A DNA stretch of 61,810 nucleotides, filler included, from Globobulimina sp. (taxonomy: Eukaryota), in assembly GCA_003354225.1 (NCBI GenBank). It is 7 parts of 7 records of this genome, joined end to end, with 100 filler letters (N's around TTAATTAATTAA, not from the genome) between each part and the next. Parts side by side here need not be neighbours in the genome. Positions count along the whole stretch, not along the records: positions 8,861 to 17,618 come from PIVH01000062.1; 6 more parts are not named here. One strand, given 5' to 3'. Of this stretch, positions 4,944 to 34,971 are shown piece by piece (the first letter of the stretch is position 1; every line of letters starts with the position of its first letter). The notes under the pieces were generated by a model. The model saw only the letters and a program-made list of their open reading frames with translations. It was not told the DNA's origin and searched no databases. The translations under genes and the position numbers were made by a program.

Positions 4944-7407
4944 TAATCATTTTTTGGCAGTATGTTTTTCTCAAATTTATTCTATATCCATAACCATCCA
5001 ACTCTTTATCTTTTAGTTCCCATCCTTTCATTTTTAACTGTTCCTTTAATTTCCAATCTAAATCTTTCAATTTGACAAACATTTTCTCAGTTCTTTTATT
5101 TTTACTTTGCTTTCTTTTATTTATTTGATTCTCCGAAGAAGACGAATAATAATCAAAATAAACAAATTTCAATAGCATAAATTCTTTATTTCTTGTTTCA
5201 TTCAACCAGACCAAAAAGCGTTGAATATTATAATTATTAAATCTATACTTATTGAACAATGACAAGCCTTTCATATTTGGATAAATCCTGTCGATTTTAA
5301 AGAAATCAACGTTCCAAATATCGCCACCTGACATTATATCCTTTTCCTTATCATTCCGCAACATTAAACTCCTTAAACCCGGACTTATATCATCCAGAAT
5401 TACATGAAAATGATGGCTCGGTTTCAACATTATCTCGCTCATTTTTAGCAGAAACATTTCCTTACATTTTATCCCGTATTTCCTGTTTTCTTTTGTCGAT
5501 TTCAAAGCATTCTCGACTTTATTCAAATCATTCTCCATTTCATCCTCTCTGTACTCAATAGCTAATGTCAACAATTCGACATACACTTTCTCCAAAAACC
5601 TGTCCATTGAATAGATGCCTTCTAAAAACAACCGCATTGCAAAAAAATATAAACGGATTAAGTGAGCATTTTGTTTCTCAAAAACAGCAATATCGCTGTC
5701 CGGCATTATAATCGGTGTCTTGCTGAATATTTTCCTCACTCTCACATACATAAAACCAACTAAACGCTCAGACTCTTCTGGATAGTCACTGAGCTGCGAG
5801 GCGTCGAAGGCGTAACAAAGTGGCAACTGCGGATACTGCGAATTCATCTCAATGATCATTCCTTTGTCCGTTGCAAAGGTCGACGCCACGTGGTACGATG
5901 CGGTGGCACTAACAATTGAGAAACAAAAACAACATAACTTCCTATTTGCAAATTAATAGCAAATATGTATAATAGTAATATACCTCAATGGCCCCCATAA
6001 ACGTGACAAAATATTATGTCTTTGGATGATCATCAAAGGGTTGACGCCATGATAAAACCGCTTATAACCGATGGAAACAGAGAATTTCTTAATGGTCACA
6101 GTCAGACACTGCCTCCAATTCGAATACGATGACAACCTTCGTCTCATCGCTAATAATGTATCATCATCGTATTGGTAAACATAGTTCGTGATAATTCTGA
6201 AACATTTCTTTAATGCATGCTGCAGTTTATCAAAATCTGTATACAGTTTGATTGCGATGATCTCTTTCAGCGAAATAGTTTCGTTTTTCTCCCATTTCGC
6301 ATGCCTTATCTGCTCCAAATCTGAGGCATAGCCATGTTTCTCTTCGTTATGAGTCCGAATCGATTGCCCAATCCATGATCGCTTGATTTTTTTCGATTTC
6401 CGCAGCGTGTCATTCCAATCGTAGATAGTGATGATCTTAAATGGACAATGCAACACTTCATCCTTTATGTTGTCATACCTCGCTGTCACATTATACAAAT
6501 TCTTGACACCCTCCACAGATTTGATCCTCTGCCACACAAATTGTCCCATTTTCTTCTCCAATTTGATATACAACTCATTGCAAGTTTTGCTGTCACGAAC
6601 AATGCATTGCATTGTCAGTCTATCCTTGCCGCGAAATGTATTAATATCATCCTCGGCAATTTTATCATTCTCAATGTTTGCTACATTGTACGTGGCGATA
6701 TGTTTGCTTCTGATTCGAGTCATGATGGCGTATGATTTTAGCCTTAATTCCCATTCATTTTGTAATTGCAGTACCTCTCCGTCGCTGTGCACATTGAATG
6801 CATCTTTATATTCATCAGCAGATAGCACATCATCTGAACATATTGGATTCGCATATTTGAGTACACCGTGCAAAAAGTAAACATGTATTCTATCCAACTC
6901 GAGCTCCAATTCTTTCTCTGTTGAACATTCATCAGTGTTGCTCTTGTAATACAGCAGCAAATTTTCAACAGTCTTAGACTTATCTCGATGGTGTCTCTGA
7001 AAAGCAGGACATTGGTCGTTGCCGCAAACACGGTCAATACCGCACTTTCTAAGTATCATATTTTCAACATACGGAAATACGTTGTTTTGGGCGCTGTTGT
7101 TGTCTGTATGGAATCTTTGAATGTGCTGGAAATCAGCCAATATTGCCTCGTATTCGTATATTTTATAGGTGACAAAATGTGAAACAGGTTGTTTCATCCA
7201 ATACAGTGAGCAAATATAACTCTGATAACTGCACAGAATGATGATTAGTCTGCCAACACAGGGACAGAATTTGTAATCGTTGCAATCAAAGTTAACACAT
7301 TCTTCTTTAAGCCGTTGCTTGTGTTGTTGCAGCGCTATTGCGTCATTGTGGAGTATAGGAAATATTTTATCGAATTCTGCATCTTTTGTTTGGATTATAT
7401 CTGTCAT
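4918..7407 (-). CDS. ADP-ribosyltransferase-like (ART-fold) domain protein, 2 exons
   Basis: ORFs 5953-7584 and 4918-5889 join through GT-AG intron 5983-5909, giving KLYTD...FYHG...GPLSATASYHVASTFA.DKGMIIEM...SDYPEESERL. The start could be further upstream (7584). Confidence 0.65.
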
Positions 7408-8029
7408 TTGTTGCTGTTTAGTTGTTGCTATTGGTGCTGGTCGAAGGGAGTAATCAGTGTCGCTTTGTCTGTGGTTCTGTAGTGAAGATATGGCATAATA
7501 TATGTTTGTGCAAAATAATACACTATCAATCCTAAACGTTGTTATCCTGATGTTGCTGACCATGGTGTTCTTTGAATTCATCATTAGCGTTTATAATTAG
7601 GTGGTGGCCAATTTGCAGATGTTGATTGTTTTGTTGTTTATTGGACATTTAAAATGAATGAAAAAATGTATTATAAATGGTGTTGTTGTTGGCAAATATT
7701 CAATATAGTCACAAGATACTTACTCTTGAAAGGTTTTCACAGAGCTAGGTTTTGCAGTAAATTTCAAACAACACATTCAACACATTATGGTTTGTCACTT
7801 TGTCTATTTCTTTTGTAAAATCACACCAATGCCATGGTACATATATACAGTGATATTGATATTGATATGAATAAAAGTGTGGAATGAGTGAGTTCATCAA
7901 TTAAAAAAAACAAATACGAAAAAACATAATAAATAGAAATAAATAAATTAATAACAAGAATATAAATCAACAAAATAAAAAAGTCAGACCCTAACTCATC
8001 ACATTAATTAAAAAAAAATAAGTACGAAA

Positions 8030-8760
8030 AAACATAATAAATAAATAAATACATAATTTGGTTCATTTTTTTGTTGTATACCAAAGGCAAACCAAAATAA
8101 CGTTAAATACAACAATAACACAGAATAATACCCCGACATTCATCACAGTAAAAGCACTAAATTGCAAAACCACTCTCTTTGTCTTTGATGCCATATTCAT
8201 TTCGGTATCATCAAATTCCTCGTTTTCAAATAACGCATACTCGCCACTGTCTGAACTACTTTTTTGTTTTTTCTTTTTTTTCTTTTTCTTTCTCTTTTTT
8301 CTATCATCAGAATCCTCCGAATTGCTACCACTCCTTAACGCAAATAAAACATTCCATTAATAATTACAGCAAATATAAATATAAAAACGGAGGCAAAGGA
8401 AACATACATTTTACTGTCGGAAGACTCCGAAGACTCTGAAGACTCTGAAGACGTCGTAGGCGCAGAGGAAGGCGCAGAGGAAGGCGCAGCTGTACACGAA
8501 TTATCTCCAATTACATTCATCTGGAAAAATCCGGTGGCGATACCTTCGGGGCGGCCAGGTGCTGCATTACCATCCACTTGAATGTAATACTCCACACATT
8601 GGCTTACGTTATTACTGGTATTAAACGGCAATATATGTGCAGCCACAGTGTCGTTACTGTTGTCGTTTGCTTTCACCAACGTAAATGTGCTAAAATCACC
8701 ACAATCGGTGGCAGTATAAACAGCCAATTGAGTATTGATACAAACACCGGCATAACACAC
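8030..8760 (-). CDS. 3' part of a surface/single-pass membrane protein with PSSA and SES repeats
   Basis: Truncated at the contig edge. APSSAPSSAPT and SESSESSES repeats, then a probable intron (~8410-8335) to an exon with a poly-Lys tract and a TM helix (VGVLFCVIVVFNVILVCLW). End coordinate is approximate. Confidence 0.45.
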
Positions 8761-8860: not shown

Positions 8861-8875
8861 GTACATGAACATTTT

Positions 8876-9057
8876 CTTATAAATGGACGCCCGTAAATGG
8901 CGAAATCGCTATATTTATAAGCTGTATAAATGGCATATAAATGACAAAAACATATTTATATAGCTATTTATAAGATTAGATTTCAATCAATATAAATAGC
9001 ATATAAATATGTTTTTTTGGATTGTCATTTATAAAGGTATTTATATAGCCATTTATA
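8876..9057. repeat. Nested imperfect inverted repeats (foldback) made of TATAAAT/ATTTATA units
   Basis: 8925 tataaatggc-atataaatgac-aaaaacatatttata-tagctatttata pairs with tataaatagc-atataaatatgttttt...gtcatttata...gccatttata 9057. A smaller stem cttataaat...atttataag (8876-8921) encloses GCGA-AA-TCGC. Confidence 0.8.
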
Positions 9058-9145
9058 TGAAATGTTTATAAATATGTTTTGAAAAAATAACATTTTTAAA
9101 AAAAATAATAAAAATTTACTAAACAAAGCAAACACAAAGCACTAA

Positions 9146-9921
9146 TTAGTTTTTTCTCCGTTTTGTTTGAGGTGGTGGATAAATATTAAATCTCCATGAA
9201 TTTCCCTCAAATGTTACGAATTTATAAGGTTTCCTTTTATTATTTCTATGTTTTCCAGATGCTAAGTTATATATTATTTATATTATATTTATATTATATT
9301 TATATTATATTTATATCTTATTTATATCGTATTTATATAATACCTTTTTTTGATTTCAAGTTTGGATGTCCTTTTTCAATCGATGCAGGTAATTGTGGTT
9401 TGGGTTCTATATATGAAGTGCAAGGATAATTCAGCGAATATGCGTAGATATTAACTGGTATGCACTAATTTGCGTTTATATGAACTTTTGATTTGTGTCG
9501 TTTTGATTGGTATCTGTAACATTGGCTTATTTTTAAAATAAATTAAATAACTTTTTAAAAGACTATCTTGCTGATTATACCATTTACTTAATATACGATT
9601 GAATTCAGTTAGAGCCGTATTCCCATTACATAATAAATTATGCAATTGTGGGGCTCTTTTAAGTAATTTACGCATTTCATAAGATTGATAAAAATGTTCT
9701 GGTTTACCACCGCCAATAAATAATTCTGAAACATATAATAATTTTTTTAAATAAGATAGTTTCCATAAATTGCAAGTGTTTAAATCTACAGCGACATCTT
9801 TACAAAAAATAGATTCTTTCAATTTTAAATTCAATGTTGATAATAAATATTCATTTTGATGTATACCAAAATTGATAATATCACTACCTGCAATATCTAG
9901 TGAAAGTCGACCTGTACTCAT
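9146..9921 (-). CDS. TGRxSLD-domain protein A (element accessory gene; frame break near 9455)
   Basis: N-terminus MSTGRLSLD. Downstream exons ~9454-9344 (..HPNLKSKK) and 9261-9146 flank intron 9343-9262, whose junctions match an intron of paralog B. The link between the 156-aa ORF and these exons needs an unusual intron or a frameshift. Confidence 0.6.
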
Positions 9922-10013
9922 GGTTAAATAAATTATGAAGTAAGTATTTAAAAAACTCTAAAGTCTGAATTGAAATCAAGAGCGTTAACTAAAAATATTA
10001 ATCCAATAAACTA

Positions 10014-11317
10014 TCATTTATCCTCATCTTCATCCAAACTATATCTTTTTGCATCATCATGAAATATATTATTTAAACATTCATCTAAACCTGAAACTGA
10101 CAAAGTTTCAAGTGTTGCCTCCTTCAAAATCAATCCCCATGTCGCTTTCATAAAATTCCGTTGCAAAGACGTATTTCTTGAATCCGTTCCCATAATCCGC
10201 ATCCGATCATGACGATGCCATGGCGCTGGCGGCCGCGCTGCTAAGTTATATATTATTTATATTAAATTTATATTTTAATTATATATTATTTATATGATAC
10301 TTATATAATACCTTTTTCTGATTCCAAGTTTCGAAATGATTTTTCAGTCCAATCAGCTGTATATATTTACATCACATTTATATACTCATTTAGATATATT
10401 TACATCACATTTATACACCATTTATATACCTCTAAATATTTTTGCATCAAAAAAATAGTCGACACTATTTATATATTATTTATATAATATTTATACATTA
10501 TATATAAAATATTTATAACATACATATTATTCGATATGTCATCATTTCCTTTCCTATTTATATATTAATTATATATCATTTATATAATATTTATATACTA
10601 TTTATGACATACTCATCAATCGGTGGCGAAAAATCAATACCATACCTGTTTATATGATATTTATATACTATTTATACACTATTTATATATTGTTTATAAA
10701 ATATATAGTGCATACGTGTCAAATCGTAGTGTTTTTAAATTTATGCCAGCAAAAATATCTTCTTTTTCTTTACGCTCTTTTTTAAACATACCAGCACGGA
10801 CACAGGCCTTTTCTTTTTCTTCTTCTTCTTGCGCTGTTTAAAAGCTATGATAGTGATGCGATTTTGCGCAAGCATATATATAAATTAATATACCATAACA
10901 CACGGATTTTGCGCAAGACACTGCACACGGATTATTCTGAATATAGATTTTATATATTTGTTTATGTAATATTTGATCAAGGCGCCAATTATCTGATATA
11001 TGCGCAAATTCTTTCGCAAATTCATCTTGGTTTTTATAAATTATTTCATACAATTCAAATGATCCCTCTTTTAACATTCGTAATGTAGAACTTTTATCAT
11101 ATGAAAAATGAATATCTTTTGTTAATTGATACATATATGCAAAATTCCATAAATCCGCTGTATAAAATTTAAATGCCACATCACACCCTGACAATAACTC
11201 AGATTGCTTATAGTTGTAATTTAATATTGATAATGTATACTCATTTTCGTCATGCAATATAAAATCAATAATCGTGCCGCCACCTTCGATATCTAACGAC
11301 AACCTTCCGGTGTTCAT
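10014..11317 (-). CDS. TGRxSLD-domain protein B, 7 exons, 303 aa
   Basis: Exons 11317-10894, 10833-10716, 10645-10613, 10553-10524, 10464-10430, 10356-10312 and 10240-10014. All introns are GT-AG and the frame stays open (912 nt). Confidence 0.75.
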
Positions 11318-11424
11318 GATTAAACTCTTTGACTGCTGACAGAGTGTGATGAAAATCAGAATTCTAAAAACCTCTTTAAATAAATTGTTTAAACACAAAA
11401 CAAAAAAAAAACAAAACTCACATT

Positions 11425-14400
11425 TTACTTATTTTTATTTTTATATGCACATCCCATCGAACTGCAATATTTCCATAATTCATTCAATTCAAATCGATCG
11501 TTAAAATAAGATTTAATTTGACTGAGTCTATTTTCATTAATAAAATGATATCTATACTTTTGTAAATAAACCCATAACGATACATTATGGGTATGTGTCC
11601 ACTTTTTATTTTGATTAAATTCTAAATTTTTCTCCAATATATCATCATAAACTTCATTTCTAAGTTCATCCAAATCCAAATCAATGATTGGTAAAAGTCT
11701 ATTTGTTCCATCCTTTGCTTTAAAAGTTCCCTCAAATAATTGCAAATTAAATGTGCCAGTAAATATTTTTTCTAACTCATTAAAAACATCAGGATACATC
11801 AAAGAATACGGCTCCCATTCAGGTTGTATTCTTTTTGACTTTTCTTTCCGTCCCTCCTCAAGCCAATATTTAAAACATTTATAATTTGCAGCAAATTCAA
11901 ATATTGCTCCATTTATATATGCCAATACTACTCCTTGTCGACCAAATTTCCATCGATATATATTTAAAAGATTATTGCGTGCCTCTAAACCCATAATTCC
12001 TAAAATAATTATATATTTATATATTAAAAAAAACTACAAACCAAAATATAGTATATAATTTGGTACCAATATTAGGAATTGCACGGTCACACAATCCACA
12101 ATTAAATAACATCATAAGATGGTTTGGCAATAATTCAATGTCTCGACGATTCCTGTATCCAAACGAATAATGATTATATACTGGATCTTGATATTTATTT
12201 TGTTTACAATCTTTTGGCTCGAATCTATTTATATATTATTTATATATTATTTATATGATAGTTATATACTATTTATATATTATTTATATATTATTTATAT
12301 AATAGTTATATACTATTTATATATTATTTATAACATACAAATAATCTGTCCATGTTCGCCAATGTGACTCCATTTCGCATTGGAATTGAACAGGAGATGA
12401 AAATGGCATTTTTAATAAAGATTTTATTTTATCACAATCACTATCTCTCATTTCCAAAATATGTTTCGCCCACCAAAGAGGCATACAAATAGGTGCAGTA
12501 TAACCCGGTATAACATCACATTGTATTTTACCATTGGGGTATTTTAAAGATCGTCTGTAATAAAGATCAAAATCATGCACGTAACAACCTTTGCCAAGGC
12601 CAAGCTTGACGCAATCAGCATTCCTCCCTTCTTTATATTTATCATATTTGATCGTATCAATATCATATCCAACGTCTTGCTTATATGCATTTTTTACATC
12701 ATCAAATTCAAATTTACCCATAAGAAATGCAAAATAATTTGGAATATCACAGGGCGCTAAATGAATTATTGCTTGTCTCATATTTACTTTCATTCTTTCT
12801 TTATCATCGTCTGTAATCTACAAAGATACATGCATTTATATACTATTTATATAGCATTTATAATACATCTATATAGCATTTATAATACCTTTTTAGTAAT
12901 ATTTTTATTTGACACTTCCCAGCATTGATGAAATGGGCGATCTGCCAATCTGGTTTCGTTTGTGTTTTTTACATATACACGGAAGGTATCAATATTATCA
13001 TCGCCGTATATATCCTCTCTGTCAAGCAAATATTGCGTCAAACCCATTTCATATTGTTTGCATGGATAATGTTTAACATGCGGTAAGTCATGGCGTCTGG
13101 TTTTTTCACAACGATCCCAAAAAGCTAATCTACTTTCTGCGGATATTCTGTAGTATTTAAGTGCGCGATATCGTCTCTTTGCAGTGATTAATAAACTTTC
13201 CCGATGAAAACCACACGCAGTTGACTATATAAACAATATGTAAATTATATATAAATACAATGTAAATATAATATAAATACTATGTAATTATACCACTGCC
13301 AACATTAATTTTACCCATGCCGTTAAATTATAATTCCATCTTCTTTTCCGGCCTGTTTTGGGATCACATTCAGGAAACAATATTGATTTCTTTGTTTTTT
13401 TATCATAATGTTCTTGTTCTAACCCGCCCATAACTAGTTTGCACACATTTTTGTTTACACCCAATCCATCCGTTCTTATTTGAAATCCTTTTTTTTCTTT
13501 TTCACATTTTTTCATATTTTCTTTGACAACACGCTTCATGACCGGAATAAAAGTACCATGCCCTTCACCTTTTGGTACTATTCCTTGATGTAATATAAAA
13601 TTGGGCCCTGTTGAAACTATTAAATATGAACATGGAATTGGTTGATCTGTCGATAAATCTGCACTCTCATCAAATGTTTCATTGTATTGCGATTCACCAA
13701 TCTCTTTGATATCATCCTGTTCATTTTCTTTTGTTTCATCTACATTTTTTTTTAATTCTTTCCATGGATTTCTTGCAGATAATATATGCGCATCGACTTT
13801 ACCATATATATTACGAAATGATTTCTCTGTCCAATCAACTAAAAAGATTTTGTAATCAATGCGCATTAAGGCATTTCTAATCAATTCTATTTATATAGTG
13901 TTTATATACCATTTACAAACTATTTATATACTAATTATAGATAAACATACGATTTGCTTTACGCAATATAAACTTTAACATCCATCGCTTAAAAAAATCA
14001 AAATGACCCCGGTTACAAATACTTTGCATAACTAAATGATCTAAATCGTGTTCGGGATAATATAATTCTTCTTTGTTTAATACAGTTTGAATTTCCCCCA
14101 CACGTTGGTTCATAAAATCAGTGACCCATTGAGACACTTTGGAATTTTGCGTTTTTAATGAATTTTTTAAAATCCATGATATCTATATATTGATTATATA
14201 TTATTTATATATTATTTATACGCTAGTTATATACTATTTATATAATATTTACATGTTATTTATATATTTTTATATGTTATTATTTATATATTATTTATAT
14301 ACTTATTTATATGATATTTATATATTATTTATATAATATTTACATATTATTTATATAATATTTACATATTATTTATATACATACCAATCGTCCAGTGATA

Positions 14401-14852
14401 AACATACCGCCAGTGCCAATACTAAATATTCTGCGTGTTTTGCCACCATCATATTCTACATACACCTTCGGTACACTAAGGACATCTTCATCTAATACGC
14501 GTATATTACGACAGAATTGTAGAGCAGGCGAGCATTTATTACTTCGTAGACATCGAATGCGTGATGACATAACTCGAATGTTACTGTTCAAACTAACAAC
14601 ATTATGATAAGCTCCTTTATTTAGACGTTCTTGAAAAGGACAATAATTTCCTGCAATTTCTTTACATTTCCGGGACCCGCAGAAACCTTTAATACTTGCA
14701 ATGTCACGGTCCATATATATTTTGCCTTTGTTAACATTTATATTATGAACATGTTGCAAAGTTGCATTCGTTGTTAGTAACAGCGCATTTAATCCATCTT
14801 GCACTGTTCTAGTCTGTTGATTAATCATCTTTGCGCTTTTTGAAAAACGCAT
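11425..14852 (-). CDS. DDE transposase (MULE/hAT-type CxxH signature), 7 exons, 946 aa
   Basis: Exons 14852-14385, 14182-13951, 13886-13294, 13224-12889, 12817-12339, 12224-12067 and 11999-11425 (2841 nt, open). Cys-rich N-terminus, then FDESAD, IRTDG 67 aa later, CGFHRESL and GIMGLEARNN. Confidence 0.72.
14183..14384. repeat. Longest intronic ~11-bp tandem array (consensus ATTTATATA[T/A/C]T)
   Basis: tattatttata-type units fill the 202-nt intron. Similar arrays occupy most introns between 9262 and 17443. Confidence 0.85.
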
Positions 14853-14938
14853 TGTAACCGGTGTAGAGTGATAAAGTGATTTAGACTGCTTTACACTTTT
14901 CAAAAAACACTTTACTTTGTAGTCGAATGACACAAACT

Positions 14939-17618
14939 ATGGCTACTGGAAGAGTCAGTCTCGACAGCATCACAGGCAACGCAGCAGAGTTCGATACGTT
15001 TGGCGAATATTGCTTGTTTAAATTGCGGATGATATTGCAACAAAATGAAGATTTTGCGGCAATCCCAATCCAAATGAATATTGGAAAAATTTGGAAATCT
15101 CGGTTTGTCATTAAATTAGCTGCGCATTTGCCAGAGCATACACGGCAAATAGCAATTGGTGGTGCGGCCTTAGATAAATCGTTAGACGGATATGAGCCGC
15201 AAAAAATTAAAAAATGTTGCCCCGTATTGTACGCTTTAATATATGACAAAGAGAACAAAGATATGCGACTAATATGCAATGAATTTGAAGAGACTATGAG
15301 TGAATGGCATGAGGAGATTAATGCATATAGAATGTTTTACATGCAACGACTTGATAAGACCTATAATATCACCAATAACAACACCAATAATAACCATAAT
15401 ATCAACAATAACAACATCAATAATAACAACACCATTGCAGGTATTGCGAATTTGCGTTATATTTATTGCGAATTTGCGTTATATTTATATATTGTTTATA
15501 TAGTATTTATATACATATTTATACCCTAGTTATATACTATTTATAACTTTATTTACTATATATAGAATTTATTCCATCCGCCACCGCAAATATTATTCTG
15601 CCACCCATTAGCAGCTTTATGGAGGCTCCCTTAACCCCACAACAAATGCCAAAGACCACTCCCATAACGATGATAAAAGATAAAAAAAAAGAAAAGGCTG
15701 AAAAAGAATTGGCAGAGAAAATAGAGAGAAAGGCAGCAATACAACGTTTAAAGAATTATTCTAAGTTTTTTAATTGGGCGGCCGGTATGTTTATGACATT
15801 AATACGTCCTCATTTGCTACCAGAGGAGGTTAGTTTGCTCATTGTGTATCGAGAGAATTGGTGGGTTATTAATAAGGACATCGTTGAAAATTGTGTTTTA
15901 GATTTAACTGCAGAGAAAAAATTAACAAATGTTAATAGTAAGGAAGCATTGTTATTTTTACACGTTAAGTTATATATAAATATATTATAAACAATATGTA
16001 AATATATAGTAAATGATATATAAATATATTATGAATATAATTTATAACTTATGTAATATTTACATATTATTTATATAATAGTTATATACTATTTATATAT
16101 TATTTATATAGAAAAAAGGTAAATTAAATATTATTAATGGACTTAAATTAAAATGCCATACTGATTACAGCTCCTTTAAATTCGGCAGTCCGTGGATTAA
16201 TGCTGAATCTTTCAATATAAATGGTCTTGGAAAGCATTTCGTCGGTGTCCCTAAAAACAGAGAGAATGATACGTGGCGTGAAGACCATCCAGATATTGCG
16301 GGTGTATTACGGTTATTTATATATATTTATATTATATTTATATATTATTTATATAATATTTACATGTTATTTATATATATATATATATATTTACATAGTT
16401 ATGCTGTTAGAAATGTTATTAATTATGCTGTTGATGAATATATGGAGCATGAAGTTATTGCGAAGTATGAGAAGGGAGTAATTGGATATAAGCGAAGAGT
16501 CGCTCGTGTCAATAAAAATTATGAAAAGAATATCATTAAATATGAAGGTAAAAGCAGAGGAGCGAAAAATGAACCAACCGTTAACGTACAATATACTCAA
16601 AGATTGGTCGACGAAAATGGACAAATAACCACAATGAAGATTGATGAACAATTAAAAGTATCAAAATTAGATCATCATTTGGATTTTGGCATATCTCTTA
16701 TTCCTGAATATGTTGGCGTTTTTCAGGATAACGCGCCAGTGCCTACGAAGCACCATTTGACTGAACAATATCTGAGCAAATTCATACTGTTTGGATATGT
16801 CCCCGGATTAAATTTACATCCGTCATATATCACTGACACATTAGAAGTCTTAGGACTTGTTGACATGACAAGTATGATATAAACACTATATAAATATCAT
16901 ATAAATATCATATAAATATTATATAAATAAGATCAAGATGATGATGTGGTTCAAAGAATGTATAAGTGGTCCCGGGAACCACCGCCACCGTCAAAAGATG
17001 AAAAAGAAAACGGTAAGTGTGTCATACCTTTATATAAATTACCTGCTTTGAATCAGCGTCATAAACTTTTATTAAAAAATCCATTACCCCGTAACATTAC
17101 AAAACCATTTTTATCGCGTGAAATACTTCTATCTAATTCAAAATATAAAGAAAAACGCGATAAAATTAGAATTAAGAAGGAAAAAAAGATGAAAAAGGCT
17201 GGAAACAGTAAAAGGGAAATGGATAGTGATGAATTGGACGATTTTGAAACTACGCTAACTGATTTTGTGCAAACTGCTGCTGAAAAGTATGGATATAAAC
17301 GAAACAACTCTCAACGAAATGATGATCCTTCACAATATGAAGAATCCCCAAAGCGCAAAAGTTATGATTTTATTTATACAATATTTATATTATATTTACA
17401 AATTATTTACATCACATTTATATACCATTTATATATTAATTAGGCAGGAATAAAGGAGATCCTGATATGATGGACGTTGACAGTGAGGAAGAAAAAAAAG
17501 AAAAAAAAAAAAAGAAAAAAAGTAAAACAGGAAAAAAAAGAAAAAAAAAAAAAGAAGGAAAAGAAGAAGGAAAAGGAAAAGGAAAAGAAAAAGACAAAGG
17601 AAGAGGAAAAGGAGAAGG
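14939..17618 (+). CDS. TGRxSLD-domain protein C, at least 6 exons, Lys-rich tail, 3'-truncated
   Basis: Exons 14939 (or 14927)-15440, 15566-15963, 16112-16311, 16399-16871, 16932-17360 and 17444 to the contig end. All introns are GT-AG and the phases are consistent. N-terminus MATGRVSLD. Confidence 0.75.
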
Positions 17619-26574: not shown

Positions 26575-26698
26575 AGGCAGAGAAGATCGTCATCAAATAG
26601 TAAGTAAAATTGAGAGTGATAAATTAGAAAATTTAGTAGAAAATTTAGTACTAGAAAGATTCAAATTAATTAAAATTAGAAAATATAAATACGCTAGA

Positions 26699-29600
26699 AT
26701 GCACACTGCTAGCGGTAGAAAAGGATACTCTTCTACTCGTATAAGGAAGGATAAACGTAGACCAAGATCTAAGTTAATCCAAAAATTCGAGAAAAGTGCC
26801 ATGGAAGAAGAAGAGAAAACTAGAAATTTTATGAAAGCTGGTTATCTAGATAATCAGTCGGAAAGTGCCGACTCGGATCTAGATACAGCTGACGATATAA
26901 CCGATGATAATATTATCATTAGAGACTTATTATATGATATTATAAATGAAATAGATGATAAAACAGTTATTAAATTAGATTTTGAAAATATGTATGACAA
27001 TACTAATATGAATGGTCGGTATATACATCATAATGATGGGGTGTTCCGACCTTTGGGATCGGAGACCTCAAAATTAATTGATGCACAAGGAGACCATACT
27101 ATTATACCTGCTAAACATACCCGTATTAGTATCGTAGAAGATAAAATTATATTAAATGATTACGATAATATGGTTGTCCGATATAGAGGATGGGGGACTA
27201 TATTATATGATGATCATGTTCATATGGATGAGGTTATTCGACCCTTAAGATCGGAAGACCATTGGCATTACGATAATTTCAAGATTATCGATAATAAATA
27301 CGTAATAAAAACTTGTACGTACCATATGGAAGGAAATTATGAATATGAGTATGGAGAAAATTGGTATAATGTAGAAAATTCTATATTCATAACTGATAAA
27401 ACTAAAAATATAAATTACAAAAATTTATACAATATTTTATTTGATGAATCAAAATCAGTTATAAGTATAGAAAATTATAATATGTATAAAACCCGGTATA
27501 CACAAACTCCGGACCGTACGAGAAACTCTCCGGAACATAGAATTAATATACGCAGTTTGAATAACAAACTATGTAATTATTCCATATTATGTGTGGAGAG
27601 TGAAACTAAAGATGATAATATAAGATTAAATATCATCTGGGATAAATTAGCTTGGATACAACTCCAAATTATGGAAACTTCTAAAACAGTAGAAGGAAAA
27701 CGCATCCATAAAGTTATAAATAATGTACTTCGAGACTTGAACGAAAACTTTACTAATTTAGATGATAATTCTATAGAAGATATACGACGATTTTATAACT
27801 ATGCCGAGCAAAGATTGACTAAATTAGATGAATTTTGTACAAAAGCATATACTAATAAATGTACCCCTATTTCAGGTATGGCAGAACAAAAGCCCATAGA
27901 CGATCAAACAACATCTTCAACTATAACTGAAACAGCAAGCGGGTCACTCGACTCCTCTGCTTTAGCAGGAGGTTTGTCTGGCCTTAGCACTGCTGAGAAA
28001 TCCTCCGATAAAACTTCAGAAAATATAGAAAATGTAGAAATGGTAGAAAATAAGGATGCTTGGAAAACCTCTGCATCTACTAGAGCCATTCCGGATGACC
28101 CGGATAAATATGAAGAATTTGTATCACAATACAAATACCCTGCAAAACTAGAAAAATTTATAAATAAATTATACAACGAAAAGGATTATGTATTTAGAGA
28201 TAGTGAAGAAATTGAACATACAATAGAAATCGGTACAGACCCTATACCTAGAAAGGCTATGTCCGATGCAGAAGTAGAATTATATACAATTAGAAATGAA
28301 TTTATATACAATATGGCATCAGGAATGGGATATGAAGATACTGAATGCCCAGAACATAGAGAATTAAACTTAGAAATTATTCGAAAACTTCGTTTTTATA
28401 TAAACGATACAGAAAGTAAGCCAGACATACCTGTTCTAGGGGTACATCTGGCCGAAATATTAAAATGTATAGAGAAGAAAAATTTGTACGATATTGCAAG
28501 AAGTATAGATGTCGGCGAATCATTACAGAAAATTATGAAAGAAATCACTATTATGATGTTATCTACAAATAAATGGATTTTCACAATTAACAAAAATGTG
28601 AGAATCCTTATTCAAAATGATAAATATCTTACAGAACAGGTTAGAAAATTAAATAAAATAGCAGTAAAAAATGAAGAAAAGAACAAAGAATTAGAACAAT
28701 ATAAAACGGCTAAAAATCAAGAAATTCAAAAGTTGAATAACGATATAACTGCTATGAAAAACGAAATGATAGAAATTAGAAAATTGTATACCACCGTCCC
28801 TCCTCCAGTTATACAACCAGATATAACGGTGGAAGTAATGCCGGAAGCAAGAGATAAAATGGACTTATTAATTGGAGGAACATATGATTGCCCTTTCAAT
28901 TTGGATAAAACCACAGACATTAAACTATTAACTAAAATAAATGAAGATGGTGAAGAAAGATTCGTAACATACCATTCTTTCAACCATTACTTATATATGC
29001 AAACGGCGATCACTTGTCTTGATTGGGACATGGTTCGCAGATTGTCAAAAATTAAAAATAAAATATGTTTCGAATTAATACTACAAAAATGTCCTATTGA
29101 ACGATACCAAGAAAATATAACAACGTTCACAGAATCATGGATTGCCAATTGTTATTATAACTTTATGGATTATGTAATAAAAAGAAATTTAACCTTGGCT
29201 ATGATTTGCGGTAAAATAGGACATGAAAAATATAATACTAAATTCCTTATAAAAGATGAATTATTAGGTATCGGATATAACATAAGCCAAGAAAATATAT
29301 ACTTATATAAATATGAAAACATTACAGCAAAAAATAATTTATTAGGAAAATCTATTATATATTTATGCAACAAATATATTGCAACATATGTAGAACTTGA
29401 TGCAGCAGATAAAAAATTAGCAGATCACGAGTTTGCTACAAATGCAGCAACTTGGATGATTACTAATAAAAATGAAGATAAAGCATTAATAAATGCACGT
29501 ATAAAATGTTTACAAAATATAAAATGGGAAAAGAAATATCCAATAAAAGGGAATATTCAGATAATTAGAAATGAAAGATTCTCCTTCGCTGACACTCAAT

Positions 29601-31390
29601 TCAGTCGAGGATTTAACCTAGGTGACGCACCTTGGAATTCCTTTCTATCTCGAGGAGAACTCAACGAAGCAAGAAAATTAGCTGCAGAACAATATGATAA
29701 AAAAACCCCTGAATATCAAGAAGAATTAAAGAAAACGATAAGAGAAATGTCAAGTAGAAAAATGGAAGAAACTAAAATCAGACTGGAAACTGCTTCAGCT
29801 GAAAATATATTCGAGAAATTTGCTAGTGAAGATCTGGATACGTCATCAGAAATTTTAGACAAAAATCCACATCCAGAATCAAATATAAAATTAGAACCTG
29901 AAGAAAAAAAGAAACAATCTGCCGGATCTGTCCAAGGTGATCCCGACCGGCAAACCCCTATATCATCTGAAGGAAGTATAAAAAATATAGAAAGTGCAGA
30001 TGATGATAGTTTCAAAAAACCCAATGAGTGGCAATTACAACGTGGTAGAAAACATAGAAGTCCTGGACGCGGGAGAGGATATGGTCGTGGATATGGCGGA
30101 AGAGGATACAACAGAGGACGTCAAAGTAGACCATATTCTTCAACCCATATATCTAGAGACCCTTCATCAGAGGGAGAATATAAACAACCATATATAGCTG
30201 GTAAACCAACAGAATTCTCGGCTGCTGGAATATTTGGTTTACCCAATATAGCAAAAAATATACCAAAAAGAAAATCGTCTCAATCTAGGGATAGAACGGG
30301 CTCCCAAGGAAGCCAAGATCCAAATATTAAACAACAACGTTTATCTATAAAGTCGGGCATAGAAATTATAGACGAAGCACATAAACGTCTACCTGATAAT
30401 AAATTACCGCCCATATCTCAAACTTATAACTTAGAAAATTTATTGGATGCAAATATATTTTTGGGACTCATTAATGACCCCTACGAGGGTAAAATCCATG
30501 CATATCCAGCAGGAAAAATTTTCCTGCAACCTATAGAAATGAAACCAAAGAGAATTCCATTAAATTTGTCGCCTCTAGCTGAAAGACACGGACAAATATT
30601 AGATCCTACATTAATTGATAGTACAAAATCATTCCGAGTTCCTAATAACTTGAATCTCTCCATTTTGGGAGACTCTACGACTTATGGATTGGAGGATTTT
30701 ATATTAGCCACAACTAAAGAATATGACGTTAAAAATTTTGTACATTATAACGGTATGAGATCATCCGGAAGTGCCTTTTTGAGCCTTCGTTTGAGATCTA
30801 TGATGACATTAATGCCAGCATTGGTTTCCAATGATGAGCATGTTATTGTTATAAAAGGAATCCTTGATTGTGCTGACATTGTCAATAATCAAGTTTACCA
30901 ATCTCAAGTTTTTGAGGATTGGAAACATTATTGCGGTCAACTAGTCAAAGATATTAGTAAATTATGCCATAATATACATAGTATAAATCCAAAAGCATTA
31001 ATGTTGATATCATTAACAGCTCCGATCTTGGGTCACTCTAATTATATGAGAAGTGAAGAAGATCCTGGATTTTTGATATTAATAAATGAAATAGAAAAAT
31101 ATTTAACTTTAGAAATTAATTTATTAGCAGAAAAATCTGCACTGCCGATTAGATACATTGCTCTAACAGCAGCTATAAATCATGAAGTACATAGATTAAA
31201 GAAAGAAGCTGAAAGACAGAGTAATTCACCAGTAGAAATTACCGATTCAGTAGAAAAATTTATAACTGGTATAAAATTAACTAGAAATGGCCAAAAAATA
31301 TTGGCTAATGAAATAATCAGAGAATCAATAGTTGGATGGATTAAATTCTCAAGTCCCGACTCAAATTTATTGCCTTCGGGAAACTTATAA
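26699..31390 (+). CDS. LINE ORF1: coiled coil, NADAR-like domain, RG-rich tract, SGNH-hydrolase-like domain
   Basis: Coiled coil ~28630-28790. GGTYDCPF...YHSFNHYLYMQTA...D...DELLGIG...NNLLGK at ~28867-29375. RGRGYGRGYGGRG at ~30070. ILGDS...G..DC...TGIKLTRNGQKILA at ~30658-31320. Confidence 0.8.
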   Translation: MHTASGRKGYSSTRIRKDKRRPRSKLIQKFEKSAMEEEEKTRNFMKAGYLDNQSESADSDLDTADDITDDNIIIRDLLYDIINEIDDKTVIKLDFENMYDNTNMNGRYIHHNDGVFRPLGSETSKLIDAQGDHTIIPAKHTRISIVEDKIILNDYDNMVVRYRGWGTILYDDHVHMDEVIRPLRSEDHWHYDNFKIIDNKYVIKTCTYHMEGNYEYEYGENWYNVENSIFITDKTKNINYKNLYNILFDESKSVISIENYNMYKTRYTQTPDRTRNSPEHRINIRSLNNKLCNYSILCVESETKDDNIRLNIIWDKLAWIQLQIMETSKTVEGKRIHKVINNVLRDLNENFTNLDDNSIEDIRRFYNYAEQRLTKLDEFCTKAYTNKCTPISGMAEQKPIDDQTTSSTITETASGSLDSSALAGGLSGLSTAEKSSDKTSENIENVEMVENKDAWKTSASTRAIPDDPDKYEEFVSQYKYPAKLEKFINKLYNEKDYVFRDSEEIEHTIEIGTDPIPRKAMSDAEVELYTIRNEFIYNMASGMGYEDTECPEHRELNLEIIRKLRFYINDTESKPDIPVLGVHLAEILKCIEKKNLYDIARSIDVGESLQKIMKEITIMMLSTNKWIFTINKNVRILIQNDKYLTEQVRKLNKIAVKNEEKNKELEQYKTAKNQEIQKLNNDITAMKNEMIEIRKLYTTVPPPVIQPDITVEVMPEARDKMDLLIGGTYDCPFNLDKTTDIKLLTKINEDGEERFVTYHSFNHYLYMQTAITCLDWDMVRRLSKIKNKICFELILQKCPIERYQENITTFTESWIANCYYNFMDYVIKRNLTLAMICGKIGHEKYNTKFLIKDELLGIGYNISQENIYLYKYENITAKNNLLGKSIIYLCNKYIATYVELDAADKKLADHEFATNAATWMITNKNEDKALINARIKCLQNIKWEKKYPIKGNIQIIRNERFSFADTQFSRGFNLGDAPWNSFLSRGELNEARKLAAEQYDKKTPEYQEELKKTIREMSSRKMEETKIRLETASAENIFEKFASEDLDTSSEILDKNPHPESNIKLEPEEKKKQSAGSVQGDPDRQTPISSEGSIKNIESADDDSFKKPNEWQLQRGRKHRSPGRGRGYGRGYGGRGYNRGRQSRPYSSTHISRDPSSEGEYKQPYIAGKPTEFSAAGIFGLPNIAKNIPKRKSSQSRDRTGSQGSQDPNIKQQRLSIKSGIEIIDEAHKRLPDNKLPPISQTYNLENLLDANIFLGLINDPYEGKIHAYPAGKIFLQPIEMKPKRIPLNLSPLAERHGQILDPTLIDSTKSFRVPNNLNLSILGDSTTYGLEDFILATTKEYDVKNFVHYNGMRSSGSAFLSLRLRSMMTLMPALVSNDEHVIVIKGILDCADIVNNQVYQSQVFEDWKHYCGQLVKDISKLCHNIHSINPKALMLISLTAPILGHSNYMRSEEDPGFLILINEIEKYLTLEINLLAEKSALPIRYIALTAAINHEVHRLKKEAERQSNSPVEITDSVEKFITGIKLTRNGQKILANEIIRESIVGWIKFSSPDSNLLPSGNL

Positions 31391-34300
31391 AGGTCAGTTC
31401 AATTTTTACCACAACTAATCCCATAATTAACACAAACTTTTCAGATTCAAATATTGATGTGTATAAAGATGTGTATAAAGACCAACCTATAAAAGATAAA
31501 GATGTAGAAAATAAAGATAAAGACAATGAAATAATATTAATTGATCAAACAATTGATATATTATATAACAATGTGTGTTCTATGAACACCAAATTTGAAT
31601 TAATAAATGATAACATAAAACTTATAAAACCAGATGTTATTTGTTGTGTTGAAACAAAATATAAAACTGTCTTAGACTTGCATAAATTTGATGAATATGA
31701 GAGTTTTCATAAAATGCAGATTGGCAAACCTACAGGCGGTATTAGCATTTGGGCTAAATCTGAAACTAGACCAAGCAGATTAGATATAGATGACATCGAT
31801 GATGAAATATCTATGAATTATTTATGGATATTATGTCAAAATAAAGCAATGACTGCTATATGTGCTGTATACCTTAGAAATCAAAGTGATCCAGACGCTA
31901 GAGAAACAAATACAACAATATGCCAAAGATTAATGCAACACATTAACTGGTGTAGATTACATAATTATAAAGTCTTTGTTATTGGAGACTTTAATGGACA
32001 CATCGGCAATGATGAATGGGGAATAAACGAAAACCATGACGATATAAATAATAATGGATTCATAATAAGAAATTTTATTAGAGACTCAGATTTAAAATTA
32101 TTGAATTCAGACTTAGAAACTGAAGGTAAATGGACATGGGGTTATAATAAAAATAATACAAAGCCCCAAATTCTCGATATAGCATTGAGAAGTCCAGATA
32201 TTACAAATATTAAAACGATTATTGACGAAAAAAATAATATATATGGTAATATTGGTAATAAAGATCATTGCTTTATACATAGTAAAATAAGTATTAAAGC
32301 TAAAAATAAAATATTACAAACTAAACTAATTAAAGATAAATGGAAAATAAACGATGAAACTAACTGGCAACAATATCAAGAAGAAATTAGAATTAAAATT
32401 ACTGAAATGGACAGTAATGATAAAATAACAGAAAATTCAATATTTAAAATAATAGAAGAAGCGGGAGTCAAAAGTATTGGATATAAAAATAAAAATATTA
32501 AGAAAAAGAAAGAATCAAAGAAGATTAGACAATTAAATTTAGAAATTAGTAATTATAGGAAAGAACTACGTAAAAATCCTGAATTTAAAGGAAATATATT
32601 AAATGAATTATTTAAGAAAATACGAGAAAGACGACAAATTAGACAGAGAGCTGAAATGGCTAGAATAGAAAATGCCCATAATAAATGGATTAATAATCCA
32701 AAAAGGAAATTTCATCAACTATATGATACTATGAAAAATCTAAAAAGAGGTATAAGTGAAAAGGTGACACTAATAGACGAGGATAATATACCAATAATTG
32801 GAGAAGAAAAGATAAATTCACACATAACAGATTTCTGGGAAAGTATTTTCACATTAGGAATATGGCCCGAATCGAATGATGAAATGAAGAGATTAGGAAT
32901 GAGTAATATTATAAATGGACCAGATAAATTAGACCTAGAAAATGAAATTTCAGTGAAAGAAATTAAAGATGCTATACATAAACTTAAAAATAATACATCA
33001 GCTGGAACTACTAATATCCCTCCAGAATTTATTAAAAATTGGCCTGAAGAAATGACACATTTATGTCATACACTTTTTAATAAATGGTTTGATTCCAGTT
33101 ATTTTCCAGAAATAGGGAAAACTCAGGAAGTAACATTATTACATAAAAAAGGATCAAAAAGTAAAATTAAAAATTATAGAACTTTATGCTTGGGATGTAA
33201 TTTATGTAAATTATATCTACTAATATTAACTGGAAGATTAGAAAAAATAACAGAAAAGAAAAATATATTAGGATATATACAACACGGATTTAGAGCAAAT
33301 AAAAGAATTGAAGACTGTATTTTAGTTATCCAACATACAGTACAGAGAGCTAATAAATTGAGAAGATCCGAATCCCCTATTGTAGCTCTACTAGATATTT
33401 GTAAAGCATATGATAGAGTGTGGAGGAAAGGTTTATGGAAAAAATTAAAAGATTATGGATTCCCAGATAAATTGATAAATGCGATAAAAAGTAGCTACCT
33501 GGATCCGGGTGCTACAATAACATTTCAAGATACTAAAACTAATAGACTAAAAATGCCAGTAGGATTAAGACAAGGATGTACGATGTCACCTATATTATGG
33601 GCATTATTCATAGCTGATTTAGGTAAAGAAATAGAAATGTGTCACCTTGGTATTGAAATAGGAACTACAGAAAATAAACAAAACATATCTGGATTATTTT
33701 TTGCTGATGACATGTTATTATTCGCAAAAAACGAAAATAACATGAAAAAATTATTAAACATTGTAGGAAATTACGCTAATAAATGGAAAATAGAATTTTC
33801 AGGCCCTAAAAGCCTAATTATACCATTAAAAAGACCGGTAGAGAAGGAACGAAACTGGTCTTTAGGACATAAATATATCTCGGAAGGAGAAAAGAAGGAA
33901 ATATACATACAGGAAGAAAAAGAAGCTAAATACTTAGGAATTACTCTATGCCAAAATAGCATGGATATAATGAGGAAACATAAATTAGATTTAGTAGAAA
34001 GAACTAGAAAAGAAACATACAGATGCTACAAACCCGCTACAGTAACATCTAGACCGATATTATATGGAACTAAAATATGGCAAACATATGTTATACCAAA
34101 AATATTACATGGTATAGCAGCAATTCCATTTTCAATAGAAACCTTTAGATGTATAGAAACTCAACAAAGAGAATATATAAGAACGATTGCCAGATTACCT
34201 AGAGGATGCAATAATATGGTACTATATGGAGAAACAGGTTTAATTCCCATGAAAATGGAAGCTGAAAAACGAACCATTAACTACCTTGCTCACATACAAA

Positions 34301-34971
34301 AATTAAATTTAGATAATATAGTAAAAACTGTATTATTAGAACAATCAGAGATATATAACAACAAGGATACAAGCCAAATATGGCTTACTCATGCCATAAA
34401 TTGCTGTAGAAAATATAATATCGATTATACAAATATACCAAAAAAGGATATAATTAAAGATATTATAAAGGAGGCGTGGATAACAGAATATAACACGACA
34501 CTAAATGAATCCGTATCATTATCAACTTTTTATGCAGAAAAAATTAGACCCAAAATTAATTATAAATTAAACCTACAAACAGGAGGAGACTTTTGGCTGA
34601 AAGCTAGAAGTGGATGTTTAACATTAAATTACAAAACAAACCAACCCTGCTCGAGATGTGATGAAAATGCATTAGAAACAATTAACCATTTATTATGGGA
34701 ATGTCCGAGTAACATATTAACAGAAACGTATGAAAATCATATACAAAATCTTTGGGGATTACTCCCACCCAATATAAACGGACATATAAAACCAGAATAT
34801 AGAACATGTAACGATAATGAAAGATATGGTTACTTAATGTTAAGTACAGATTATATATTTAATGACAAGGTAAATGGCCAAATCATAAATATAGTGGGTA
34901 CTATTATTAAAGAACTATATAAAATTAGACCTGAAACGTTACAATATACTATTATGAAAAATAGAAATTAA
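31345..34971 (+). CDS. LINE ORF2: apurinic-like endonuclease, reverse transcriptase and C-terminal CCHC finger
   Basis: YNNV, CVET, GDFNGH, LDIAL, DHC (APE). NYRTL, QHGFR, LDICKAYDRV, GLRQGCTMSP, FADD, KYLG (RT). CSRC..ETINHLLWEC. Frame is open from 31345 with no ATG before the APE motif. Confidence 0.95.
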   Translation: MLKSRLKFIAFGKLIKVSSIFTTTNPIINTNFSDSNIDVYKDVYKDQPIKDKDVENKDKDNEIILIDQTIDILYNNVCSMNTKFELINDNIKLIKPDVICCVETKYKTVLDLHKFDEYESFHKMQIGKPTGGISIWAKSETRPSRLDIDDIDDEISMNYLWILCQNKAMTAICAVYLRNQSDPDARETNTTICQRLMQHINWCRLHNYKVFVIGDFNGHIGNDEWGINENHDDINNNGFIIRNFIRDSDLKLLNSDLETEGKWTWGYNKNNTKPQILDIALRSPDITNIKTIIDEKNNIYGNIGNKDHCFIHSKISIKAKNKILQTKLIKDKWKINDETNWQQYQEEIRIKITEMDSNDKITENSIFKIIEEAGVKSIGYKNKNIKKKKESKKIRQLNLEISNYRKELRKNPEFKGNILNELFKKIRERRQIRQRAEMARIENAHNKWINNPKRKFHQLYDTMKNLKRGISEKVTLIDEDNIPIIGEEKINSHITDFWESIFTLGIWPESNDEMKRLGMSNIINGPDKLDLENEISVKEIKDAIHKLKNNTSAGTTNIPPEFIKNWPEEMTHLCHTLFNKWFDSSYFPEIGKTQEVTLLHKKGSKSKIKNYRTLCLGCNLCKLYLLILTGRLEKITEKKNILGYIQHGFRANKRIEDCILVIQHTVQRANKLRRSESPIVALLDICKAYDRVWRKGLWKKLKDYGFPDKLINAIKSSYLDPGATITFQDTKTNRLKMPVGLRQGCTMSPILWALFIADLGKEIEMCHLGIEIGTTENKQNISGLFFADDMLLFAKNENNMKKLLNIVGNYANKWKIEFSGPKSLIIPLKRPVEKERNWSLGHKYISEGEKKEIYIQEEKEAKYLGITLCQNSMDIMRKHKLDLVERTRKETYRCYKPATVTSRPILYGTKIWQTYVIPKILHGIAAIPFSIETFRCIETQQREYIRTIARLPRGCNNMVLYGETGLIPMKMEAEKRTINYLAHIQKLNLDNIVKTVLLEQSEIYNNKDTSQIWLTHAINCCRKYNIDYTNIPKKDIIKDIIKEAWITEYNTTLNESVSLSTFYAEKIRPKINYKLNLQTGGDFWLKARSGCLTLNYKTNQPCSRCDENALETINHLLWECPSNILTETYENHIQNLWGLLPPNINGHIKPEYRTCNDNERYGYLMLSTDYIFNDKVNGQIINIVGTIIKELYKIRPETLQYTIMKNRN

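Follow-up and report, generated by a model that had tools for sequence, protein, structure and literature searches.

A conserved, intron-rich gene unit encoding a transposase-like RNase H-fold protein on a contig of the Globobulimina sp. assembly

The DNA that we analysed (the window, 61,810 nucleotides (nt), filler included, from the Globobulimina sp. assembly GCA_003354225.1) consists of seven contigs of ~8.7 kb each joined by N44-TTAATTAATTAA-N44 linkers. The second of these (contig 2, PIVH01000062.1, present whole at exactly 8861-17618, 8,758 bp) holds the genes T, C, B and A (Table 1), the first of which encodes a transposase-like protein of 946 amino acids (aa). The preliminary description of this DNA had proposed that the scattered short open reading frames (ORFs) of the contig join through GT-AG introns into a multi-gene, intron-rich locus. 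This proved correct, as the predicted models of T, C and A are each supported by an open spliced frame. For the four genes that had been counted, the agreement extends to these three spliced models and, for B, to a 159-aa ORF with at least one exon. The other six contigs are eukaryotic and have long ORFs that run for up to 1,816 aa without interruption, and contig 2 is unlike them in its short exons; an AT-rich, otherwise intron-poor eukaryote is the best explanation for the host.

Table 1. Positions, in window coordinates, of the predicted genes, introns, proposed residues and repeats on contig 2.
Feature	Position	Strand	Remarks
Gene T	11425..14852	-	predicted spliced ORF of 946 aa in 7 exons; RNase H-fold, DDE-type transposase-like
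T exons 1-4	14852-14385, 14182-13951, 13886-13294, 13224-12889	-	
T exons 5-7	12817-12339, 12224-12067, 11999-11425	-	
D251 in DWTEKSF	13834..13836	-	proposed first catalytic aspartate; strand beta-1; codon checked
D373 in RTDG	13468..13470	-	proposed second catalytic aspartate; just past strand beta-4
C435-G-F-H438	13204..13215	-	(C/D)xxH motif; exon 4 start
E761 in MGLEARNN	11983..11985	-	proposed catalytic glutamate; invariant in 6/6 sequences
Four-Cys N-terminal block of T	14550..14681	-	C58, C63, C71, C101, then RSN; invariant in 4/4 loci
T intron 1	14183..14384	-	202 nt; 11-nt array, 10 sense-type units
T intron 2	13887..13950	-	64 nt; 11-nt array
T intron 3	13225..13293	-	69 nt; array in opposite orientation
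T intron 4	12818..12888	-	71 nt; 11-nt array
T intron 5	12225..12338	-	114 nt; pure array of ~10 units, donor to acceptor
T intron 6	12000..12066	-	67 nt; absent in P0027-P0029
Gene C	14927..17618	+	at least 729 aa, cut by the contig end; divergent from T
C exons	14927-15440, 15566-15963, 16112-16311, 16399-16871, 16932-17360, 17444-17618	+	
C intron 1	15441..15565	+	125 nt; array
C intron 2	15964..16111	+	148 nt; internal foldback of arrays; inverted repeat I20
C intron 3	16312..16398	+	87 nt; array
C intron 4	16872..16931	+	60 nt; array
C intron 5	17361..17443	+	83 nt; array
Gene B	10841..11317	-	at least 1 exon, 159-aa ORF; N-terminal M-x-TGRLSLD domain
mini-T	10014..10700	-	micro-exons ...VDYFFDAKIFR / ADWTEKSFRNLESEK / AARPPAPWHRHDRMRIMGTDSRN...DEDEDK stop; between B and A
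Gene A	9146..9921	-	193 aa; exons 9921-9456 and 9261-9146; one 194-nt GT-AG intron
A intron	9262..9455	-	194 nt; array and decayed DWTEKSF micro-exon copy
Foldback of 11-mer-like units	8894..9084	.	contig end behind A; inverted repeats I1-I8

Spliced T comprises 946 codons and a stop with no internal stops, and all six of its introns are of the GT...AG type (64-202 nt), four of them beginning with GTATG or GTATA. Every motif that had been ascribed to a 946-aa protein at 14852-11425 was located in the spliced frame: FDESAD at residues 305-310, IRTDG at 370-374 (with 67 aa from D306 to D373), CGFHRESL at 435-442 and GIMGLEARNN at 756-765, the last of which is yielded by the frame-keeping donor of intron 6 at 12066. 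Our searches for related loci returned two among JGI metagenome contigs and one among GTDB genome contigs, and no relative was found in viral contigs. L002 is a 10,143-bp metagenome contig, L001 is a contig of a metagenome-assembled genome (MAG), and L003 comes from the same assembly series as L002, the two being diverged copies. The tblastn matches of spliced T in all three loci stop at the predicted exon borders, the seven-exon layout recurs in L001 and L002, and identity to L002 ranges from 46 to 75% per exon. Further, intron 6 is missing from three of five relatives of exon 7 (P0027-P0029), whose frames continue unbroken through the predicted junction. Between T and L002 we obtained 0.307 nonsynonymous (dN) and 1.05 synonymous (dS) substitutions per site over 903 codons (dN/dS 0.29), and between T and L001 a dN of 0.547 and a dS of 2.00 over 901 codons. 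These values indicate that T is a constrained coding sequence under purifying selection.

An AlphaFold 2 model of exon 3, computed with an alignment of 18 exon-3 sequences (A1), has a predicted local distance difference test (pLDDT) score of 79.4 and a predicted template modelling (pTM) score of 0.70. Its elements follow the order beta-beta-beta-alpha-beta-alpha, with strands at model residues 13-19 (holding D251), 85-92, 97-104 and 134-138, the last directly followed by D373, and helices at 109-126 and 147-158. According to this model, exon 3 encodes the N-terminal half of an RNase H-like core. The top Foldseek rows for the model were Argonaute PIWI, the IS256-family transposase ISCth4 (E = 0.089), RNase H1 and Mos1. 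In a wide VIA structural search 6 of 48,161 chains reached Z>=5; the highest score, Z 6.3, was that of Argonaute PIWI, with values of 5.0-5.3 for retroviral integrase cores, 4.0 for ISCth4, 3.9 for IstA and 3.9 for the P element transposase. The best match of a second look was the HIV-1 integrase core, residues 56-134 (Z 5.9, root-mean-square deviation 2.9, 76 aligned residues), and ISCth4 lay at Z 4.0-4.9 across both looks. RNase H-fold proteins thus make up most of the leading matches, but such middling scores on a half-domain support the fold class and not a family. The RNase H-fold DDE core expected by the preliminary description was recovered in part, as an RNase H-like half-domain with D251 and D373 placed accordingly, although from a single exon with middling matches.

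The order D-D-CxxH-E that had been read from the sequence stands in its conserved acids and in the CxxH between D373 and E761, but its first aspartate had to be moved. D306, in FDESAD, is an aspartate in just 11 of the 18 A1 sequences and lies within an acidic, low-confidence and apparently disordered loop (pLDDT <50 for model residues 38-72). On strand beta-1, D251 shows D-W-T/A in all 13 sequences that cover its block, DWT(E/Y)K, and is the better candidate instead. With D251 in place of D306 as the proposed first aspartate, the spacing becomes D(122)D(388)E rather than D(67)D, and the full pattern of T is D251-(122)-D373-(62)-CxxH-(322)-E761. All 18 A1 sequences share E341, R371, D373, G374 and Y419, and E, R and N of M-x-L-E-x-R-N are invariant in six of six. 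The CxxH motif is present in all three loci that reach exon 4, as CGFH in contig 2 and L002 and as CRWH in L001. Four relatives end in 'C(M/L)W(F/I)SS', much as the beginning of exon 4 in the window, read in the wrong frame, gives NCVWFSS; these tails probably conceal the CxxH motif too. PMC5499845 describes a (C/D)(2)H motif common to MULE and hAT transposases. With the corrected first aspartate, the DDE reading of T finds support in the fold and in the conserved residues. The comparison of the Cys-rich N-terminus with DUF6729-type proteins was not supported: neither exon 1 nor the other exons matched Pfam, and no more than four Cys and no His are invariant in the block. DUF6729 was also not found in a full-text literature search. 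The four-Cys block may form a zinc-binding, DNA-binding module.

Profile searches gave T no family. In Pfam, ten exon pieces of the window had no match at E<=1, five C exons and five exons of L001/L002 gave only three chance rows at E 0.05-0.2, and the 18 A1 members gave acidic low-complexity rows only; no DUF6729, MULE, hAT, KDZ or Tnp2 model matched any exon. A PDB profile search with A1 likewise returned acidic low-complexity chance rows at E ~2. The earlier judgement that T fits neither MULE nor hAT cleanly is borne out, and the evidence assigns T to none of hAT, MULE, P and KDZ. Of 1.84 billion proteins searched exhaustively by HMMER with exon 3, only 20 reached E<=0.001, and each of these is an exon-sized ORF (65-389 aa). 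At least 20 exon-3 relatives, at 23-52% identity, lie on NCBI or ENA metagenome or MAG contigs; ten were looked up (4 NCBI, 6 ENA) and the sole name among them is a hypothetical protein of a Planctomycetota MAG. A profile search with exon 7 among proteins of 428-2000 aa found no longer relative, which according to the tool note is weak evidence. T is a transposase-like enzyme without previous annotation, whose relatives have so far appeared only as unannotated, exon-sized ORFs of eukaryotic contigs mis-binned into bacterial MAGs. In the ESM Atlas, 20 of the 30 clusters nearest to exon 3 (scores 0.90-0.92) carry PF21787, the RNase H N-terminal domain of P element/THAP9 transposases, which we treat as a lead only because the recognition value is lower than that of most known families.

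The introns are the most unusual feature of the locus. All 12 (six in T, five in C and one in A) are tandem arrays of the 11-nt unit TATATAAATAN, and the A intron also matches 10246-10356 (family D4) at 82% identity over 111 nt. The window contains 45 copies of the 10-mer TATTTATATA where 1.99 would be expected, and none of 100 shuffles reached 45. Contig 2 has 42 of these exact matches and the other 52 kb have 3; set against the gene models, 34 of the 42 belong to the predicted introns (12 in all), 6 to the stretch between B and A and 2 to the terminal foldback, and the exons contain none. Tandem Repeats Finder gave 13 period-11 rows, all in contig 2. The unit starts with TAT and ends with ATA in both orientations, so that a flanking G supplies a GTAT donor and an ATAG acceptor. 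We considered the arrays as a general feature of host non-coding DNA, but this has no support in the present sample, in which the period-11 rows and nearly all 10-mer matches are confined to contig 2. Candidate introns on the other contigs are 42-70 nt long with guessed junctions and are not arrays. One likely intron of 59 nt on the third contig (21843-21901, - strand) holds two 11-mer-like units (CACTATAAAT and CACTATATATAAATA) with one exact 10-mer match, which hints that the 11-nt unit resembles the host's own intron signals.

The related loci carry variants of the same arrangement. L002 contains 64 copies of TATTTATATA, L001 has a period-11 array of TATATTAATGC at each of the six T intron positions and an inverted pair directly after T, and L003, which is cut after T intron 3, has arrays of ATATTAATGT. 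In T introns 1, 2, 4, 5 and 6 the arrays are of the sense type wherever units are present, with both types in intron 1 of L003; intron 3 is of the antisense type in contig 2, L001 and L003 and of the sense type in L002. Between lineages with saturated synonymous sites (dS 1 to 2), the unit has changed at only two or three of its eleven positions, and a repeat that stays nearly unchanged despite such saturation points to constraint or strong concerted evolution. A reading of the interruptions as ciliate-type internal eliminated sequences (IESs) was discarded, as they end in GT...AG with GTATG donors and the standard code leaves 200-aa exons open. The IES end consensus is TAYAG, which the ends here do not match. 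A literature search for introns built of tandem repeats found nothing relevant, and the Astrammina paper PMC3079666 had no bearing on them.

Around T, the neighbouring genes are related to one another. C has an open spliced frame with five GT-AG introns, although 24 in-frame combinations of donors and acceptors, differing at introns 3-5, keep the frame open, so that the exact junctions of these three introns are not fixed. Over the first ~130 aa, C is a paralogue of A and B; a long middle and a K/E-rich tail follow, and the C exons had no Pfam match. By blastp, A and B share 35% identity (E = 2e-14) and A matches C at E = 4e-10, with B and C reaching only E = 0.11. An alignment of seven sequences of the domain shows the blocks M-x-TGRLSLD, NEY-L-KL, LWK and EF-EILS-W. 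A, B and C thus have in common an N-terminal domain of ~130 aa, and this domain appears to be all-alpha, the helices being those of the A model. In A it is followed by a basic C-terminal exon ending in ...FNIYPPPQTKRRKN. The AlphaFold 2 model of A (pLDDT 75) consists of helices only. Foldseek gave a best E of 1.4 with it, and VIA a best Z of 5.3 with scattered helical matches, some of them to helix-turn-helix regulators and SAM domains at Z 4-5, so that no fold was assigned. No relatives of 85-273 aa were found for A by sequence, and a relation to DTW proteins, suggested by an ESM Atlas lead of only 0.81, was dropped as within the range of chance. Just behind B, at 10856-10900 (- strand), lie two copies of GATTTTGCGCAAG with the palindromic core TTGCGCAA, conserved in L002 at 7764-7790 and read there as 'CAKSH'; the stretch is possibly a regulatory site. 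The micro-exons of mini-T, as read from the DNA, echo the ends of T exons with 11-nt arrays in between. Mini-T retains DWTEKSF, PWHR (a CGFH remnant) and MGTDSRN (a MGLEARN remnant) and is without the RTDG region.

These genes form a conserved unit. L002 has the order and orientation of contig 2, namely C (divergent), T, B, the DWTEKSF micro-exon, A and the last exon of A, at 69.9% nucleotide identity over 3,024 nt. The C homologue of L002 holds the same divergent position (E = 3e-42), the B homologue lies at 6836-7231, the DWTEKSF micro-exon is kept at 8670-8714 (80% of aa), the last 29 aa of A are 76% identical, and the phase of the A intron is the same in both. On one side both contigs end in the purine repeat that encodes K/E in C, and on the other they end 160-285 bp past the A stop in a foldback of short units. 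A foldback end had been noted before; it is present, and is modest, its arms at 8894-9084 comprising a 16-nt perfect and a 27-nt, 74%-complementary pair. The equivalent foldback of L002 (10066-10132) is 19 nt long and 95% complementary. Directly behind T, L002 also has a partial T duplicate, absent from the window, that consists of the exon-4 start with its upstream intron and the exon-7 end (6263-6418 and 6498-6669, 84% and 96% identical to its own T), and L001 has an inverted DWTEK fragment at 68-406.

On balance we favour the interpretation that contig 2 represents most of a conserved multi-gene unit whose T protein is an RNase H-fold DDE nuclease, most likely the transposase of an unclassified cut-and-paste lineage. 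Besides the properties of T itself, this is suggested by the T-derived debris next to T in L002, L001 and contig 2 (mini-T) and by the equivalent places at which contig 2 and L002 stop. Several results weigh against it. The structural scores are middling (best Z 6.3; according to the tool note, a Z below 8 can reflect a common arrangement), Argonaute PIWI rather than a transposase is the best single match, Foldseek gave no match at E<=0.001 for the exon-3 model, and that model spans only the N-terminal half of the catalytic domain and leaves E761 outside. The ESM recognition value, 2169, is below 2300, the level reached by 91% of known families, and no Pfam transposase model matches the exons of T, A, B or C or those of L001/L002. 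By tblastn with spliced T, A, B and C, the other six contigs (~52 kb) hold no further copy, and the MAG holding L001 has the T family on a single contig. Contig 2 shows one end only, in which no pair of terminal inverted repeats, target-site duplication or copy number can be read. Finally, intron positions kept at 35% protein identity and a five-part synteny at dS ~1 are equally expected of an old host locus.

The serious rival is thus a conserved host locus, in which T would be a domesticated, transposase-derived gene with a fixed place beside C, B and A, and contig 2 and L002 would be orthologous regions of two species. This reading accounts well for the agreement of gene order, orientation, intron positions and intron phase between the two contigs at 70% nucleotide identity, for the dN/dS of T, for the single copy wherever this is checkable (the six other contigs and the MAG with L001) and for the fact that no pair of termini or target duplications were found on the contig. 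It fits less easily with at least 20 exon-3 relatives spread over metagenome and MAG contigs, with two diverged copies (L002 and L003) in one assembly series, with partial duplicates and decayed pieces of T beside T in L001, L002 and contig 2, and with the breaking of both contigs at the same repeat-rich places, as happens at the borders of multi-copy elements. None of these points is decisive, and we consider a host locus rather unlikely, though well worth keeping in view.

It is also conceivable, but improbable, that T is another RNase H-fold nuclease, PIWI-like or integrase-like, acting in RNA or DNA processing or in defence within an operon-like cluster unrelated to transposition. The leading structural matches, Argonaute PIWI and retroviral integrase cores (Z 5.0-5.9) in place of eukaryotic cut-and-paste transposases, and the absence of any match of T to a transposase Pfam model would agree with such a function. 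However, the order D...D...CxxH...E, in which a long insertion precedes E, is the one named for MULE and hAT transposases (PMC5499845), and the ESM neighbours of exon 3 are P-transposase N-domains. The N-terminal Cys block, the self-derived flanking debris and the short-repeat foldback all suit a transposon, and a difference of 1-2 Z units on a half-domain cannot separate RNase H families. That the gene models are an artefact of chance open frames in AT-rich repetitive DNA or of a chimeric assembly is scarcely credible: the contig is indeed short and repeat-rich, a search of public sequencing runs listed none of RNA that contains it, and several C junctions have alternative in-frame solutions, but a 946-codon spliced frame is kept exon by exon in three independent loci with dN/dS well below 1, the exon-3 fold is confident, and one public sequencing run, possibly the source sample, contains 93% of the sampled contig words.

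If T is the transposase of an unclassified cut-and-paste lineage, its likenesses to known systems are mixed. With P element, THAP9 and Galileo transposases T shares an RNase H-fold catalytic domain and a long insertion before the glutamate (in T a presumed one), and the DG...N pattern that follows the second aspartate in the P family resembles T; the PF21787 neighbours in the ESM Atlas point the same way, at a recognition value below the usual. T differs from this superfamily in having no match to THAP (PF05485), PF21787, PF21788 or PF21789 among the exons searched in Pfam, in a VIA Z of only 3.9 to residues 208-335 of 6p5a, and in a first aspartate that stands in DWT and not in the DE context of the P element. 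The locus differs too, with several genes, twelve introns, and repeats inside introns as well as at the end. The ends of Galileo are long and foldback-like, with internal repetition and multiple sites for binding of the transposase (PMC3688188, PMC3573991).

The foldback MULEs Muta1 and Tm1 and the IS256 family have, like T, a (C/D)xxH motif between the second D and E, and IS256 is represented by ISCth4 among the structural matches given above. The glutamate context E-x-x-N of MULE and IS256 also resembles T. No PF10551 or SWIM match was found in Pfam on the exons searched, and the 388 aa from D373 to E761 far exceed the roughly 100-130 aa between second D and E in MULEs, whose first-aspartate motif is DGT where T has DWT. 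Tm1 is reportedly a foldback element with short subterminal repeats. That subterminal repeats matter for the transposition of foldback MULEs is stated in PMC5499845. Like T, hAT transposases have CxxH, a D...D...E spacing of similar magnitude and a long all-alpha insertion before the glutamate, which in T is a presumed one. The first aspartate of Hermes, Ac and Buster has a D-x-W-T/S-like context that resembles that of T. Unlike hAT proteins, T has no Pfam match to a hAT dimerisation domain or BED finger (none at E<=1 for all T exons and those of L001/L002), and its distance of 122 aa between the first two aspartates is unlike hAT because of the acidic disordered loop. Hermes was not among the 50 matches listed in either VIA search, which is no proof of a difference.

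The introns recall introners, which in algae, fungi and dinoflagellates are introns that share sequence within a genome and carry their own splice signals. The introns here do the same, and C intron 2 and T intron 3 of L001 are small foldbacks, but they are tandem 11-nt arrays and not copies of a defined element. Since their positions are kept between relatives at 35% protein identity, they are old and not recent insertions. On a more speculative view, the 11-nt arrays could be a source of portable, introner-like introns.

We can outline how such an element might work. T would bind the element ends, perhaps through the four-Cys block and the 11-nt units, by analogy with foldback MULEs and with the subterminal repeats of the P element. 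It would cut and rejoin DNA by means of two metal ions that D251, D373 and E761 coordinate, and the 388-aa stretch from D373 to E761 would be an insertion domain comparable to those of hAT and P transposases. A, B and C may be accessory or regulatory proteins. Arrays would be tolerated within genes because GTAT-type donors and ATAG-type acceptors come with every unit, whatever its orientation. A bolder idea, which we think doubtful, is that the 11-nt unit (core TATATWAATR) is not filler but has a function in the element, where it would provide dozens of binding sites for the element's own proteins, phased at one helical turn and hidden as spliceable arrays; the candidates for the binding protein are the four-Cys block of T and the TGRLSLD domain of A, B and C.

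Were T a transposase, it would represent a eukaryotic DNA transposon lineage missed by every curated profile, adding to the DDE superfamilies and to the sparse record of mobile DNA in uncultured marine protists. More surprising are the introns, with one 11-nt unit in all 12 and at the element end, and variants of it across relatives at 35% protein identity. They raise the questions of whether short repeats with their own splice signals can spread as introns, and of whether a transposon can place protein-binding repeats inside its own genes.

The remaining contigs yielded some further observations. Among the domains that Pfam recognises there are ankyrin, MFS, EF-hand/SPRY, septin-like GTPase, PHD and PDZ, and one ORF is of the long interspersed nuclear element (LINE) type. 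This last, at 48516-52862 (+ strand) on the sixth contig, is an uninterrupted ORF of 1,448 aa with Exo_endo_phos_2 endonuclease, reverse transcriptase and RNase H domains, and is an intact-looking non-LTR (long terminal repeat) retrotransposon. Two ORFs of 1,604 and 1,208 aa at 26576-34971 (+ strand) overlap by 45 nt and probably belong to a single gene interrupted by a short intron; Pfam gave no match at E<=1e-5 for the first. At 35721-38530 the fifth contig has a GC-rich island (47.5% GC versus ~30% elsewhere) with long overlapping ORFs on both strands, and the end of the first contig (8335-8760, - strand) encodes a fragment of a secreted-looking protein rich in Ser/Ala/Pro/Thr and SE repeats that is cut by the linker.

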